A stretch of DNA of 52,976 nucleotides from a phage: sequence record PZ049337.1; one strand, given 5' to 3'. Both the position numbers and the translations under genes were made by a program. This document shows positions 2,023-22,982 of the stretch, piece by piece (position 1 is the stretch's first letter; each line of letters opens with the position of its first letter). A model generated the notes under the pieces. It searched no databases. It was not told the DNA's origin and was given only the letters and a program-made list of their open reading frames with translations.

Positions 2023-2295
2023 TTAATCAACTTGCAACATTGCAAGCTGGAAGTCATATCCAACTAATACTTCGGACAGCTCTTCAATTGAAGTCGTTGC
2101 CGAGATTAAAGTTTGGAGGTTTTTGAATGTCTCATCGTTAAATGCTTGAGACTGTGTGTCGGACGAATAGAATACTTTGTCCTTAATCTTTTCAAGGAAC
2201 GCCATTACGGCGTCTTTTGCGAGAACTTCGGAATCAGTAGCAAACATATGATGCTCTAACTCCTGCATATCGAAAATAGAATATACAATTTTCAT
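2023..2295 (-). CDS. hypothetical protein (90 aa)
   Basis: Minus-strand ORF packed between DNA polymerase and the 288-aa gene; no recognisable motif. Confidence 0.45.
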   Translation of the reverse strand: MKIVYSIFDMQELEHHMFATDSEVLAKDAVMAFLEKIKDKVFYSSDTQSQAFNDETFKNLQTLISATTSIEELSEVLVGYDFQLAMLQVD

Positions 2296-9140: not shown

Positions 9141-9235
9141 GGTGGACGAGGTTGGATTCGAACCAACGACACATCTGTCGAACAGATTGCTCTACCTGAC
9201 TAAGCTCTGGAGCAGACCTTCTGAGCTACTCGTCC
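9141..9235 (-). tRNA. tRNA-like gene with expanded D-arm; possible tRNA-Arg(UCG), isotype very uncertain
   Basis: Minus-strand read GGACGAG-TA-GCTCAG...GGTAGAGC...ATCTGTTCGACAGAT...GTTGG-TTCGAAT-CCAAC-CTCGTCC-A: perfect 7-bp acceptor stem, canonical T-arm, classic D-arm halves, but about 22 extra nt inside the D-loop; CCA not encoded. Confidence 0.4.
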
Positions 9236-10393: not shown

Positions 10394-10732
10394 TTAGAAT
10401 ACCGGAGCTTCTTCAACAGCAGCTTCGGCAGCTTCTTCAACAACTGCGTCAGCAACTTTAGCTTCTTTCGGGGTATCGAACTTAGTACGCTCAACTTCCG
10501 GCTCACCAGCTTCAACCCACGGCAGATAGAATGCCAGGAACTGCTCGACGGTGTTCTTCTGCATGGAGCGAGAACGGTCGATAGCGCCAACGGTGTTCAG
10601 GTACGCTTCGGCAGCTTTCTCAATTTTAGCACCGTTTTCCAGTTTGAAGTCATGTGCATTACACTCTGCTTCGGTCAGGAACAGGGAACCATCGTTAGCT
10701 TCGTACTGAGTTACGGTTACAATCTTAGCCAT
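10394..10732 (-). CDS. hypothetical acidic protein with C-terminal ...EEAPVF tail
   Basis: Track ORF 10394..10816; I prefer ATG at 10732 (MAKIVTV...) with AGG Shine-Dalgarno, because the recurring 17-nt motif lies in the upstream extension. Confidence 0.5.
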   Translation of the reverse strand: MAKIVTVTQYEANDGSLFLTEAECNAHDFKLENGAKIEKAAEAYLNTVGAIDRSRSMQKNTVEQFLAFYLPWVEAGEPEVERTKFDTPKEAKVADAVVEEAAEAAVEEAPVF

Positions 10733-10810: not shown

Positions 10811-10827
10811 CCACATCCAATTAATGT
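10811..10827 (-). promoter_or_regulatory. copy of recurring 17-nt motif (minus strand ACATTAATTGGATGTGG)
   Basis: About 80 nt upstream of ATG 10732. Confidence 0.35.
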
Positions 10828-12140: not shown

Positions 12141-12783
12141 AGGAACTCTCCAATTTTCGATTCAGTGTTTGTGACTTCTCTCTTCTCATCTTTTGGCCTC
12201 ATGAAACAGGCCACAGGGTTGCGAAAATAGCCCTATTTTAGGACTATAGCCAACCGTTTGTGTCAATTCTGGATAACTGCATTGGTGAAGGGTTACTCTC
12301 GTTAGGGTGCGATACGCTAATCACATGAGTGTCGTCGCCTTGCGGCTCAGGCGTGTCACAAAGGCTTTGCAACCCTTCCCAATACATTCACCCAAATCCC
12401 AGCGTTGGCGTAGCTGGTGGCTTGGTTTTGTGCGGATTATGCCACTCTAAGCCCTGTTTGTCCGACTTCCTCGGAGCACCAGCGGCTTGTGGCACAAACC
12501 TATTTTCGAATGACTAACATAAGCATGAGGCACAACCCTCTAATTATTCAGCCCTAACAGCTTGCTTATTTAGTACCAATTCATCCCAATACATCGACCT
12601 ATAACAAGTGAATAGCGTTTCTGCGAAGAAGTATTCTGGCCCTTTGGCCTATGTTAAAAGATAAGTGTATTTGATGGAAACATTCCATCGAAAATAACTT
12701 TGTAGAATGAGTCGAACATTCTCACACGTCTAGCGGCCGCAACGGTCTACCGAGTTACAAAGTTATTATCTGATGTTGTTTCT

Positions 12784-12800
12784 TCAATTCCAACTAATGT
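12784..12800 (-). promoter_or_regulatory. copy of recurring 17-nt motif (minus strand ACATTAGTTGGAATTGA)
   Basis: In ORF-free region 12150-13010. Confidence 0.3.
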
Positions 12801-12864
12801 TTCAGAATTATTCCAATATTCCAAACAAAAAGAATAATAAGAATAAATTAAAATAAATGAAGAA

Positions 12865-12900
12865 AGTGCTTGACACCCATTTGGCGATAAGTGTATAATG
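12865..12900 (+). promoter_or_regulatory. sigma70-type promoter on the plus (antisense) strand
   Basis: TTGACA (12870-12875), 18-nt spacer ending TG, TATAAT (12894-12899): consensus -35, extended -10; points opposite to all genes. Confidence 0.4.
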
Positions 12901-12924
12901 CATTTCTTCCCTAAGAGGTCAGAA

Positions 12925-12941
12925 TCAAATCCCACTAATGC
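12925..12941 (-). promoter_or_regulatory. copy of recurring motif, degenerate (minus strand GCATTAGTGGGATTTGA)
   Basis: Adjacent to hairpin 12949-12995. Confidence 0.25.
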
Positions 12942-13011
12942 TTCAGACGAAGTGCCGAAGGCCAATGCGAGTACAAAACCCGCTTGGCACTTCGAAGAAA
13001 CCCGCCTGGAA

Positions 13012-13248
13012 CTATAGTGCTTTCCAATCTGAATCAAACAGTTTCTTTGGTCTTGAATAAATTATCGAATTAATTCCCAAGAAAGTATGATTTCCATACT
13101 TCTTAACTTCCTGGTAAGCAAAACCATCTACCCAATCTCCGGAGTGGGTTTTAATCTTTGTAGCAAACAGGATTCGATAGTAGTGGCCGCGTGGCTGGTG
13201 GAAGAGTATATCTTCTGGCTTGATTGAGCTAATATTTAAATCACGCAT
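13012..13248 (-). CDS. hypothetical protein (78 aa)
   Basis: Minus-strand ORF, tightly packed early-gene block. Confidence 0.4.
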   Translation of the reverse strand: MRDLNISSIKPEDILFHQPRGHYYRILFATKIKTHSGDWVDGFAYQEVKKYGNHTFLGINSIIYSRPKKLFDSDWKAL

Positions 13249-13789
13249 TTAAGAACAATACTCCTTCGGAGAAGATGTAGTCGCTTCCATAATCTTTTGC
13301 AACTGCATCCCAATCAATGTATGGACGAAGATGGTCTGGAACTTCTATCCCATCATAGTTTTTGAAGTAGTCTGCAATTGAGTCGCAACGAGTGATGAAC
13401 ATGTCATTCAAATCATTCACAGTGAAAATATCAATCTCACCACTACGGAATGCAGCAAGAATTACAAACAAATCAGTGTCATTTAAAAGTTCATTGAATT
13501 TGTCATACTTGCGTAGGCTGAACAGGCCATCAACAAAGCAAACTTCCGTAACATCCTCATCTCTTGATTCGAGAATGTCGTAAGTCCCTGTTTCTGGGTA
13601 CTCGATACCATATTCTTCGTGTAAATATTCTGACATGTTGAAGTCATAGAGCCGCCACGCCAGACCATCAATCCAAGCATCTTCATGCTCGGAATTGTTT
13701 TCGCCTGTGTAGAAACGAACCAATAAGGTTTCATCTCTACGCCAGGACTTAAGCTGTGATACTGCTTGAGTAATGTTATCGTTTTGCAT
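13241..13789 (-). CDS. ArdA-like antirestriction protein (DNA mimic)
   Basis: 182 aa, strongly acidic; C-terminal PYIDWDAVAKDYGSDYIFSEGVLF resembles my recollection of the ArdA C-terminal motif (YIDYQAYGRDL...GIFEI). Confidence 0.45.
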   Translation of the reverse strand: MQNDNITQAVSQLKSWRRDETLLVRFYTGENNSEHEDAWIDGLAWRLYDFNMSEYLHEEYGIEYPETGTYDILESRDEDVTEVCFVDGLFSLRKYDKFNELLNDTDLFVILAAFRSGEIDIFTVNDLNDMFITRCDSIADYFKNYDGIEVPDHLRPYIDWDAVAKDYGSDYIFSEGVLFLNA

Positions 13790-14066
13790 TTAGTTTCTCC
13801 CAAGTGCCTCTCAATTCTGTGTCCAGAATCTTAAGTTGATTGATTCGCTCATTTCCACCTTTGATAAGTGCACTGAGGATAGCAACCTTCTCGTTGTAAC
13901 TGACAGTGTAGACTACATCGTCAAGTTCCATAGTGTACTGCATCTTCTTTTCATCACCTACGTTAATTGATAGGTGCTGGTGGAGAATATTCTCTGCACG
14001 GATGGTTCTTGACTCTAGTGCATTCAACTCTCTTGGAATATCTTCGTAATTCATCGGATGCTCCAT
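13776..14066 (-). CDS. hypothetical protein (96 aa)
   Basis: Minus-strand ORF. Confidence 0.4.
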   Translation of the reverse strand: MEHPMNYEDIPRELNALESRTIRAENILHQHLSINVGDEKKMQYTMELDDVVYTVSYNEKVAILSALIKGGNERINQLKILDTELRGTWEKLNAKR

Positions 14067-14074
14067 TGATGAAG

Positions 14075-14470
14075 TTATGCTGGAAGTTCGAAGTGTGGTG
14101 CGTCTAGGAATTTAGCCCATTTCACCGGCTTAGTGAATGAACGCTCCCATGTTCCGCCCCAACGAATGACAATTCCAAGCTCTTCTGCGGCTTTGAACAT
14201 GTGTTCAGCTACAATTTGGAATCGTTCGAGGTCATTCCAGTCAATTGGATATGGTGCAATGTCCAAAGCGTTGCCTGACATGTGTCGGCTAACTGAAACT
14301 TTGGTTGCACCCTGTTTTAACAGCTCTTGTTGACGTTCATAAGAGCGTAAACCTTCCAAAACAGTTACATCAAAAGGCATGGTTTCACATGCCCGTTTGA
14401 AAACTGCAACTAATGAAGGATTTACTCCCTTAAGTCGGTCTAAAGAACGCTGACCGAGCTTAACATTCAT
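14075..14470 (-). CDS. peptidoglycan L-alanyl-D-glutamate peptidase, M15 family (T5-type endolysin)
   Basis: 131 aa; SRHMSGNALDIAPY...IDWNDLERF...ELGIVIRWGGTW...DAPHFE gives the H-x6-D...H zinc-binding pattern; no signal peptide. Confidence 0.7.
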   Translation of the reverse strand: MNVKLGQRSLDRLKGVNPSLVAVFKRACETMPFDVTVLEGLRSYERQQELLKQGATKVSVSRHMSGNALDIAPYPIDWNDLERFQIVAEHMFKAAEELGIVIRWGGTWERSFTKPVKWAKFLDAPHFELPA

Positions 14471-15331: not shown

Positions 15332-15383
15332 AATTCCTCCAATAATTAATCGAGGCCACTCGAAGTGGAATGGCCTCTGTTAA

Positions 15384-21041: not shown

Positions 21042-22982
21042 TTATTGACAGAAGTAGTAAGCGTGTTCGCTCATCAGAAGCTCTTCAGTTACGATATTCT
21101 CATGATACATCTGAATGCCACCGAGTTGCTTAGACAGATTCTCGAATTGATTGTTGGTTACGAAGATTTCAACATATGCTGCACGAATAACTTCCATCAT
21201 ACGTGGAGCATCAGCTAAGCAGCAACGGAAACAGTCATGGATTGAAGTGAAACCACGAAGACCAGCTTCTTTAGCCTTAACTGCAACAGTACGAGCAACC
21301 AACGCGTCAATACCTTGAATGTAGTTAACAACGAAGGTACGCTTGAACTCTTCTTTAGTTGGGTTGGACTCACGAATGGTCCAAGGCTTATTCTCCTGAA
21401 TCTGACCAAAGATAACACGAGTTTGAGAGTCAACACGAATGCTGAATGCCTCACAGATTTCACGAGATGGGAAGCAAGGCTTCATTACAACCTGACCATC
21501 AGTGTGCTTATAGGTGATGTACTCTTTGTTGAGTTCAACACAACGAGCAAATGCAGCATCAGCAGCTTTCTCAATGAACATGTTAATCTTAGCACCCAAT
21601 GCGTTATGGATTGCTTCTACACACAGTTCAGCAAATGCCTCAGCTTTCTCCATAGGAATCTGAAGAGATGCAGTCATGTAGGAGATAAAGTCAGAAGAAC
21701 CAGTTAATGCTGCTTTACCACCACCATATTGGATAGCCATGTATGGAGTTTTGATAAACTTACGACCAGCTTTCGGATTCAAGAATTCATCCATAATTTC
21801 AGGAGATGGTTTCATTGAAGAACGGTCTAATAACTTTAACAGTTCACGAAGAGATAACTGGTATGGGTCAGATGCTTTAGTCTCAGAATCAACCAGACCT
21901 GTTGCACGAGCCATCTCCATGTTACCAGCAATGAATGCCAGATATTGAGTACCAGAACATTTAGCATCTAAGCCAAAGCCTACACGAGAATCACACTCAC
22001 CTGTAGTCTCAAACTTGAACCAATCCAGAGCCAGACGAACATAAGTGAATGGCTTAGAAGGACGTTCAGCTTTAGGCATGTTCATCATGCGAGCAAGTGA
22101 ACCAGCTGGATTCTGAGCAACATAGGTCAAACGTTTAGCACTGCACCATTCACCACCAGAAATATCTTCCAGCTCAGCCATGAACATGTTGTATGCAATG
22201 GTAGTAGAACCATCTTCGTTAAACTTCTTAACGATGTTCTCAACATTGTGAGAATACAGGCAACGAGCAAAGTCAGATGATTGTGGGTTAGGACCAGCAC
22301 ATGCTACATGATACAGGCGACCACGGTTATCAGCAAAGTAGTCAGAATAGAGTGTATCCTGAGTCATCATTGCTACAGCATTGTTCCAAACATGGAGTTC
22401 AGTCTGGATTGCTTCTGGCATCTGCAAACCACCGTAGGTACGTTGTTCAATCATGGACTGAATGATGCGAACCATTTCAGTCTCCACATGGTACTCAGTA
22501 TCTTGCAGGAATTCGATTGCAGCTTTCAGAGTCTTGGATGGCTTAACTTTGCCACCTTTAACGAAAGGCTTGCGACGAGATTCAGATGTAACACGCTCAG
22601 TGAATGGCACTGCTGTGTCTTTGGTTGTAACCAGCTCAACCCATGTATCAGTTTGTTGGAATGACTTGTCTTCGTTCATGGTGATGAAGCCAAAGTGTTT
22701 AGCTAAACCAATGAGGTTGATAGCTGGGTCAACATAGTGCATTGATTTCAAGTCGTTGTTATAGCGGTTGGCATCAGCAATAGAAGAAGAAGCCAGTTCA
22801 ACCATTGCAATGGCTGGGACAACATCATCACGAGTGAATGACGTCATCATCTTGAAGATTGCAAGAGCAGCAATAGCACAGGTCTGAGGCTGCATATAGT
22901 TCTGTTTCTCTTTGGCACGATATACCAGAGCCGTGATAGCAGGGACAACGGATTTGATAGTTTGAGTGGTGATAGTAGTCAT
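21042..22982 (-). CDS. single-subunit DNA-directed RNA polymerase (T7-like), N-terminally short (646 aa)
   Basis: DNRGRLYHV...NPQ matches T7 DWRGRVYAV...NPQ; CSGTQY versus T7 CSGIQH; motif B RKFIKTPYMAIQYG (R-x3-K-x3-M-x3-YG); motif C IHDCF; GGAG Shine-Dalgarno before ATG 22982. T7 comparisons are from memory. Confidence 0.8.
   Translation of the reverse strand: MTTITTQTIKSVVPAITALVYRAKEKQNYMQPQTCAIAALAIFKMMTSFTRDDVVPAIAMVELASSSIADANRYNNDLKSMHYVDPAINLIGLAKHFGFITMNEDKSFQQTDTWVELVTTKDTAVPFTERVTSESRRKPFVKGGKVKPSKTLKAAIEFLQDTEYHVETEMVRIIQSMIEQRTYGGLQMPEAIQTELHVWNNAVAMMTQDTLYSDYFADNRGRLYHVACAGPNPQSSDFARCLYSHNVENIVKKFNEDGSTTIAYNMFMAELEDISGGEWCSAKRLTYVAQNPAGSLARMMNMPKAERPSKPFTYVRLALDWFKFETTGECDSRVGFGLDAKCSGTQYLAFIAGNMEMARATGLVDSETKASDPYQLSLRELLKLLDRSSMKPSPEIMDEFLNPKAGRKFIKTPYMAIQYGGGKAALTGSSDFISYMTASLQIPMEKAEAFAELCVEAIHNALGAKINMFIEKAADAAFARCVELNKEYITYKHTDGQVVMKPCFPSREICEAFSIRVDSQTRVIFGQIQENKPWTIRESNPTKEEFKRTFVVNYIQGIDALVARTVAVKAKEAGLRGFTSIHDCFRCCLADAPRMMEVIRAAYVEIFVTNNQFENLSKQLGGIQMYHENIVTEELLMSEHAYYFCQ

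Follow-up and report, generated by a model that had tools for sequence, protein, structure and literature searches.

A divergent, full-length ArdA-family protein encoded beside the endolysin gene of a phiEcoM-GJ1-like coliphage

Is the strongly acidic protein encoded at positions 13241..13789 (minus strand) of the phage sequence record PZ049337.1 a true relative of the ArdA antirestriction proteins, and would it act on type I restriction-modification (R-M) enzymes as ArdA does? The stretch of DNA analyzed (52,976 nucleotides, in the following called the window) is the whole genome, of ~53 kb, of a phiEcoM-GJ1-like virulent coliphage (Chaseviridae, Cleopatravirinae, Carltongylesvirus), which is permuted and inverted in comparison to the reference, so that nearly all genes are found on the minus strand. 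An earlier note on this DNA had described the product as an acidic ArdA-like antirestriction protein encoded among early genes. The gene consists of an ATG start, 182 codons and a TGA stop, with a Shine-Dalgarno sequence, GGGAGAA, recognizable 5 nt before the ATG (13795..13801, minus strand), and the protein ends exactly as quoted in that note (...PYIDWDAVAKDYGSDYIFSEGVLFLNA). Its acidity was confirmed as well: with 39 D+E versus 14 K+R, a net charge of -25 and an isoelectric point (pI) of 4.10, it is the most acidic product among the 86 open reading frames (ORFs) of at least 80 amino acids (aa) in the window. Because the ratio of nonsynonymous to synonymous substitutions (dN/dS) toward the orthologues from SA91KD and phiEcoM-GJ1 is 0.12-0.14, comparable to the genes for the single-stranded DNA-binding protein (SSB) and the endolysin, the ORF is a maintained coding gene under purifying selection and not a chance ORF.

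A comparison with the hidden Markov models of Pfam, which had been proposed as a check, was only partly in favor of the ArdA assignment: ArdA (PF07275) was the top match, yet the single sequence reached 18.1 bits (E 0.0045; residues 33-172, model positions 40-146 of 155) and thereby stayed under the curated cut-off of 27 bits. Two further sets of sequences were used, namely a 15-member alignment of the family and its profile (A1), and a 59-sequence alignment of relatives (A2). ArdA was the top Pfam match for all 15 family members tested, with a best E of 8e-7. PHROG 14321 ('anti-restriction protein') also matches the protein, at E 1e-53, and consists essentially of these same orthologues. A word-indexed homologue search gave almost only close orthologues; the link to canonical ArdA was provided by an exhaustive search of the A1 profile against 1.84 billion cluster representatives, which yielded 74 matches. 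Among the 58 of these that were scanned, 51 contain Pfam ArdA at E <= 0.001 (best 1.9e-39), several of them with more than 60-100 bits, and the relatives P0051 and P0057 exceed the Pfam cut-off with 32.5 and 30.3 bits, respectively.

Alignment of the family to 19 canonical ArdAs by hhalign resulted in a probability of 99.2% (E 2.8e-19) over residues 67-182, including the motif IPDxLxxYIDW and a C-terminal GxxF. Profiles were needed on both sides for this result, with hhalign of the family against one plasmid ArdA sequence being weak (7% probability). A BLASTP comparison with the functionally validated plasmid ArdA WP_000129958.1 was collinear over residues 21-179 at 22% identity. At the level of structure, ArdA was the only significant fold match in the PDB by two methods, and the predicted model shows the elongated three-domain ArdA fold, composed of a beta-sheet N-domain, a helical bundle and an alpha/beta C-domain. 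A search of NCBIfam with the protein returned nothing relevant. Ocr, the T7 gp0.3 family of DNA mimics, was matched neither in Pfam at E up to 10 nor among the fold matches, and, judged from its predicted promoter, the gene does not hold the first host-transcribed position; neither similarity nor position places the protein in this family. The ArdA-like character proposed in the earlier note is borne out by profile-profile comparison, transitive search, fold, essential residues and the acidity of each domain, and together these data place the protein in the ArdA family, as a divergent member of full length.

The assignment can be followed down to single residues by comparison with the ArdA of Tn916, for which domain definitions, motif limits and essential residues were taken from PMC2731889. 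The equivalent of ArdA domain 1 spans approximately residues 21-76 (13562..13729, minus strand; net charge -10) and is predicted to contain three strands and short helices (strands 22-27, 35-40 and 69-75, helices 42-46 and 52-60 in the model). It is followed by the domain 2 equivalent, a helical bundle of approximately residues 77-127 (13409..13561, minus strand; net charge -8) with modeled helices at 78-84, 92-102 and 107-116, the hhalign match starting at residue 67. The domain 3 equivalent (residues ~128-182; 13244..13408, minus strand; net charge -7) would comprise strands 131-134, 171-174 and 177-180 and helices 138-144, 152-157 and 160-170 according to the model. In Tn916 ArdA, domain 3 is the dimerization and HsdS-facing domain (PMC2731889). 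It carries the VF motif I160-F161 in its middle strand, while the anti-restriction motif 126-140 forms the dimer-interface helix; Y137, I138, F161 and F91, the latter at the domain 2/3 interface, are essential, and L127, L134, Y137, D139 and D146 make dimer contacts (PMC2731889).

The C-terminal resemblance to an ArdA signature, on which the earlier note was built, proved to be real. Residues 146-160 of the phage protein (DGIEVPDHLRPYIDW; 13310..13354, minus strand) align with the Tn916 anti-restriction motif 126-140 (ALGEVPASLQNYIDY), and L178-F179 (13253..13258, minus strand) with the VF motif in the alignment that includes Tn916 ArdA. Within the first motif, E129, V130, P131, L134, Y137, I138 and D139 of Tn916 ArdA are identical in the phage protein, where they correspond to E-V-P 149-151, L154, Y157, I158 and D159, and Y140 is replaced by W160; outside of it, D146 maps to D166. 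Across the family, Y157, I158 and D159 do not vary or hardly vary; F179 shows no variation in A1 and is conserved to at least 90% in A2. In domain 1, V6-Y7-I8 correspond to L22-L23-V24, and A22-W23 of the first hairpin to A38-W39.

ArdA acts through mimicry of the charge and the shape of DNA (PMC2731889), and charge is preserved over large distances. The net charge of -25 compares to -32 for Tn916 ArdA and -27 for plasmid ArdA, and it is spread over all three domains, with -10/-8/-7 for domains 1/2/3 versus -12/-10/-9 in Tn916 ArdA. All 59 relatives in A2 are acidic (net charge -15 to -37, pI <= 4.58) despite sharing 15-35% identity with the window protein. In the alignment of the close subfamily, only 11 columns are at least 80% D/E.

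Additionally to the three domains, the protein carries an N-terminal extension of ~20 aa (residues 1-20; 13730..13789, minus strand), which is absent from Tn916 and plasmid ArdA: the alignment with Tn916 ArdA begins at residue 22 and the BLASTP match with plasmid ArdA at residue 21. The extension precedes the first ArdA strand, has a net charge of 0 and contains a conserved patch of K14, R17 and R18; a helix is predicted for residues 2-11 at lower confidence (pLDDT 65-68). It is conserved in A1 and common to the relatives P0049-P0063 of ~175-204 aa, of which P0049 and P0051 sit in a matching phage-type gene order. Extended ArdA homologues may stay active, as monomeric ArdA keeps antirestriction activity (Roberts et al., PMC3906837).

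ArdA proteins are known to block type I R-M in living cells, and they bind M.EcoKI (PMC2731889, PMC3906837, PMC7261183). From the family membership we infer type I activity also for the phage protein, which is probably a competitive inhibitor of type I R-M of the classical ArdA kind. One way for a phage to do without enzyme inhibition, the avoidance of type I sites, was ruled out, since the sites occur at about chance frequency in the genome. Observed versus expected numbers were 4 vs 8.1 for EcoKI, 6 vs 11.2 for EcoBI, 7 vs 6.8 for EcoAI and 16 vs 9.9 for EcoR124I, none of them being significantly depleted. Each of the classical E. coli type I families thus finds target sites in the phage DNA, and a type I inhibitor would be useful to the phage. 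According to the mechanism proposed here, the T7-like RNA polymerase (RNAP) of the phage would transcribe the gene from the predicted promoter P3, together with the endolysin and the other genes of a translationally coupled block, and the protein would appear only after this RNAP is made, later than T7 Ocr. Surface carboxylates of the elongated three-domain protein would then imitate the phosphate backbone of B-form DNA, and the protein would fill the DNA-binding groove of the type I enzymes of the infected host (the HsdM2-HsdS core and the HsdR contact region), with the consequence that unmodified phage DNA would be neither recognized nor cut. Binding to type I enzymes, dimerization and the timing of expression are the steps of this scheme that we infer.

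The proposed timing is based on the position of the gene. It lies in the left-hand block of small genes behind P3, far from the structural genes. Two genes upstream, the endolysin, an M15 L-alanyl-D-glutamate peptidase, is encoded (14075..14470, minus strand; PHROG 465 with E 7.6e-55; Pfam Peptidase_M15_4). Between the two lies an ORF of 96 aa (13776..14066, minus strand) that matched no PHROG or Pfam family, the last 14 nt of which overlap the start of the ArdA-like gene; in distant relatives, an ORF of ~89 aa holds the equivalent position. Two relatives (L003 and L004) with no more than 32-40% identity share this order of endolysin, ~90-aa ORF and ArdA. On the other side, the stop codon overlaps the ATG of a 78-aa ORF (ATGcgTGA; 13012..13248, minus strand; PHROG 2652), the last gene of the unit. 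Overlapping starts and stops of this kind are a usual sign of translational coupling.

A promoter consensus built on the sequences annotated in phiEcoM-GJ1 matched the window 10 times (0.62 expected), always on the gene strand. The nearest phage-type promoter predicted upstream of the ArdA-like gene is P3 (16624..16639, minus strand), which matches the consensus core CATTAGTTGGATGTGA perfectly and corresponds to 'phage promoter 3' of phiEcoM-GJ1. No further match exists between 12941 and 16623, and no additional phage promoter was found directly upstream of the gene; sigma70-like sites upstream of it were not outstanding either (6 found vs 10.9 expected). From P3, the unit extends over the SSB gene to a terminator-like GC-rich hairpin (15352..15377, minus strand) between ORFs of 234 aa and 119 aa, where a terminator is annotated equivalently in SA91KD. 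Transcripts from P3 would need to read through this hairpin before arriving at the ArdA-like gene, which is preceded by six further ORFs, among them the endolysin, and followed by one more ORF. A strong hairpin (12944..13008, minus strand; minimum free energy -32.8 kcal/mol, z -4.7, with none of 200 shuffled sequences reaching this stability) closes the unit. A terminator is annotated here in SA91KD as well, and the hairpin, located after the last ORF and just before the promoter P4, is likely the 3' end of the operon or a processing site. In phiEcoM-GJ1, the T7-like RNAP is the only gene behind the annotated sigma70 promoter. Its orthologue in the window (21042..22982; 92% identity) lies ~7.3 kb upstream of the ArdA-like gene. 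The placement among early genes made in the earlier note therefore holds as far as the left-hand small-gene block is concerned, but the gene belongs to a predicted phage-RNAP promoter unit beside the endolysin. Its distance of ~7.3 kb past the RNAP gene, its phage-promoter unit and the adjoining endolysin point to a delayed-early or middle gene, and it is probably not an immediate-early gene transcribed by the host, as T7 ocr is.

Several observations weigh against a classical type I inhibitor. Next to the score of the single sequence under the Pfam cut-off, the N-terminal domain is matched by fold and a few residues and not by hhalign, and ArdA was not found among PDB sequences, neither by phmmer with the protein nor by hmmsearch with the A1 profile; the best matches obtained there, an LPXTG protein and PriL, were discarded as noise. 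The latter failure is uninformative, since even a canonical ArdA with 109 bits against Pfam attains no better than E 2e-5 with the Tn916 ArdA entry 2W82. With regard to single residues, the main dimer-interface residue L127 corresponds to a glycine (G147) in the phage protein, and F91 falls into a gapped part of the alignment, F114 being a candidate counterpart from reading of the sequence. The predicted expression by the phage RNAP, 7.3 kb past the RNAP gene and beyond a hairpin, looks late for an action that has to precede restriction. Furthermore, an ArdA-like phage protein with another target is known, namely gp119 of Fletchervirus, which inhibits EndoV (PMC13091555), and no experiment on any Chaseviridae ArdA was found in the literature.

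Some of these points would be explained if the ArdA-fold DNA mimic had been retargeted to another host DNA-binding protein, such as EndoV, AlkA, H-NS, RNA polymerase or another defense system, with type I enzymes not being the main target. Besides gp119, the reported effects of ArdA, Ocr and Arn on H-NS-dependent regulation and the additional inhibition of BREX and RNAP by Ocr (PMC12707154, PMC7261183) are in line with such a change, as are the expression predicted from a phage promoter rather than directly upon entry, the conserved N-terminal extension with its basic patch, which is the subfamily's own, and the glycine in place of L127. Nevertheless, retargeting appears unlikely. Unlike gp119, which matches domains 2-3 only (PMC13091555), the phage protein keeps all three domains, the full anti-restriction motif and the VF motif, and every essential residue that can be tested is retained. 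In Tn916 ArdA, domains 1-2 are responsible for antirestriction, and the monomeric L127E variant keeps 80% of the activity (PMC3906837). BREX, as one of the other conceivable targets, is not inhibited by ColIb-P9 ArdA (PMC7261183), and neither the DNA-type genes of the genome nor its numbers of type I sites are out of the ordinary.

A related and rather doubtful idea is that the Chaseviridae proteins make up a distinct 'long-N' ArdA subfamily, defined by a length of ~180 aa, an N-terminal helix with a basic patch, glycine at the L127 position and a gene fixed in the endolysin block driven by the phage RNAP, and that their target or timing might differ from classical ArdA. They might, e.g., be monomeric mimics directed at other defense or repair targets, comparable to Fletchervirus gp119, or act on replicating instead of entering DNA.

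It is even less probable that the protein is a type I inhibitor acting mainly later, by antimodification or by protection of newly replicated DNA, with escape on entry achieved by other means. The location of the gene in the P3 unit with SSB and endolysin, outside the host-transcribed RNAP unit, would fit such a role. On the other hand, type I enzymes must translocate DNA prior to cutting, and genes of T7-type RNAPs are expressed within minutes; translocation thus leaves a time window, and a transcript from P3 could be early enough. The antirestriction and antimodification activities of ArdA are separable (PMC3906837), which is in line with such a role, but L127, the mutation of which abolishes antimodification (PMC3906837), is not conserved in the phage protein. 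That the protein is decayed or merely acidic, has no anti-defense role and owes its label to a weak similarity propagated since 2008, as might be read from the Pfam score below threshold, the inconsistent labels of orthologues ('tail fiber protein', 'replication inhibitor protein', 'hypothetical') and a literature in which no functional test was found, is scarcely credible given the low dN/dS, the synteny and acidity kept down to ~30% identity, the fold matching ArdA alone, the hhalign probability and the retained essential residues. Classical inhibition of type I R-M thus stays the probable function of the protein.

The earlier note had also pointed to other acidic early proteins as potential defense antagonists, with the 112-aa product of 10394..10732 (minus strand) as an example. 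This suggestion was not supported. The gene, which lies directly behind a phage promoter at 10811-10826, is a strongly conserved core gene: its product shares 54-82% identity with 23 aligned homologues and 56-96% across all 88 found, among them proteins of Erwinia and Pectobacterium phages. Of its net charge of -11, -8 is located in the last 40 residues. The protein has a conserved N-terminal helical domain, a variable acidic linker rich in Ala and Glu and an invariant C-terminal Phe (PVF/PLF), and the model predicts a helical hairpin with a disordered tail; neither a Pfam match nor a significant fold match was obtained. In our reading, such an architecture may recall the acidic tails found in SSB or T7 gp2.5-type proteins rather than a DNA mimic. 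With nothing marking the protein as such, it was rejected as a second mimic. The second most acidic ORF of the window encodes 90 aa (2023-2295, minus strand; net charge -10, pI 4.32; PHROG 24945) and contains a site similar to the phage promoters at 2054-2069.

Some further observations concern the regulatory surroundings of the genes discussed above. Upstream of the RNAP gene, a site similar to the phage promoters (23050-23065, minus strand; 2 mismatches to the core) is present that is not among the annotated phiEcoM-GJ1 promoters; it could let the phage RNAP amplify its own expression. Behind the ArdA operon, the intergenic block 12780-13010 shows 97-99% identity between this phage, phiEcoM-GJ1 and SA91KD, with neighboring genes showing a dS of ~0.5-2.4. 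The block contains the 12944-13008 hairpin, two phage promoters in tandem (P4 at 12925-12940, P5 at 12784-12799) and a tract rich in A/T (GC content 0.25 at 12800-12899), and the ~640 bp downstream of it (12141-12780) are devoid of minus-strand ORFs of at least 60 aa. Tandem phage promoters together with an AT-rich tract recall the layout of the primary replication origin of T7, a likeness put forward here as an idea only. The same block includes a perfect 12/12 sigma70 consensus (TTGACA, 18 nt, TATAAT) at 12870-12899 on the plus strand, opposite to all genes and facing the ArdA operon. No other sigma70 site in the 53-kb window comes as close as 1 mismatch. The site has 0 mismatches in phiEcoM-GJ1 and SA91KD, and could drive antisense transcription by the host RNAP across the 3' end of the ArdA operon. 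No tRNA was predicted in the window by ARAGORN, and Rfam yielded nothing at gathering thresholds. Just below threshold, an Rfam tRNA match is found at 9151-9206 (minus strand; 27.9 vs 29 bits, model positions 9-63 of 71), in a region where the records of relatives have an atypical 'tRNA-Arg, may contain an intron' of 95 nt.

The assignment as ArdA is an already known annotation, correct but ordinary. Gp22 of phiEcoM-GJ1 was entered as a putative antirestriction protein in the genome record of 2008, and most relatives as well as the PHROG follow this label. Some records deviate: in MLP1 and Yersinia PYps3T/4T/16T/23T, the features under the match include 'tail fiber protein', which is also the source name of the MLP1 orthologue itself, and in Pel53 'replication inhibitor protein'. 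The record 'Staphylococcus phage Pel53' belongs to this coliphage group; its naming probably reflects annotation or host-label errors. The 'phage' ardA used by Silas et al. was considered as a member of this phage group and rejected, as it is the plasmid-type WP_000129958.1. The long-propagated database label now stands on firmer footing through profile, fold, residue and charge evidence, which is of limited practical value. If the function holds, the gene would help these virulent coliphages, some of which are under consideration as agents of biocontrol or therapy, to plate on E. coli strains that differ in their type I R-M systems, and it could also make the phages visible to decoy sensors of DNA mimics such as Ronin.

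Compared to known systems, the closest counterparts are phiEcoM-GJ1 gp22 (YP_001595417.1) and its orthologues in ST32, SA91KD, Mangalitsa, flopper, Bp7, PYps16N and other phages, which have 77-97% identity, equal length and the same place after the endolysin. The copy in the window is closest to that of phage TH25 (96.7%) and shows no substantive difference from its orthologues. With Tn916 ArdA (Orf18; PDB 2W82/7BTO/7BTR), the protein shares the three-domain fold, both motifs, the residues of the dimer hydrogen bonds, a pI of ~4 and the acidity of all domains, whereas identity is only ~20%, the 20-aa extension is an addition of the phage protein, L127 is replaced by glycine and F91 is unaligned. 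Moreover, Tn916 ArdA is encoded on a conjugative element, while the phage gene belongs to a virulent phage and its transcription by the phage RNAP is predicted. The ArdA proteins of plasmids (ColIb-P9, R64 and pKM101 type; WP_000129958.1) are similar in length and charge and match collinearly at 22% identity. ArdA of this type is a proven inhibitor of EcoKI and trigger of the Ronin decoy system (Silas et al.; PMC7261183). Plasmid ardA is expressed from the leading region on entry (PMC12707154), while the phage gene lies in a phage-promoter unit.

T7 Ocr (gp0.3) does a job analogous to that proposed for the phage protein, being an acidic DNA mimic that blocks type I R-M and is encoded by a virulent phage with a T7-like RNAP, but it is not homologous to the phage protein. 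It mimics ~24 bp of DNA, compared to ~42 bp for the head-to-head ArdA dimer formed via domain 3 (PMC2731889), and it inhibits BREX, which ArdA does not (PMC7261183). Ocr is also the first gene that the host RNAP transcribes during entry (PMC12707154). The predicted expression context of the phage gene differs from both T7 ocr and plasmid ardA. Finally, gp119 of Fletchervirus NCTC 12673 (PMC13091555) and sArdN/sArdC are likewise phage-borne or truncated mimics with an ArdA fold and illustrate that this fold is modular and can be retargeted. Gp119 corresponds to domains 2-3 only and sArdN/sArdC have ~1/3 of the length of ArdA, whereas the protein encoded by the phage described here is full-length and comprises all three domains.

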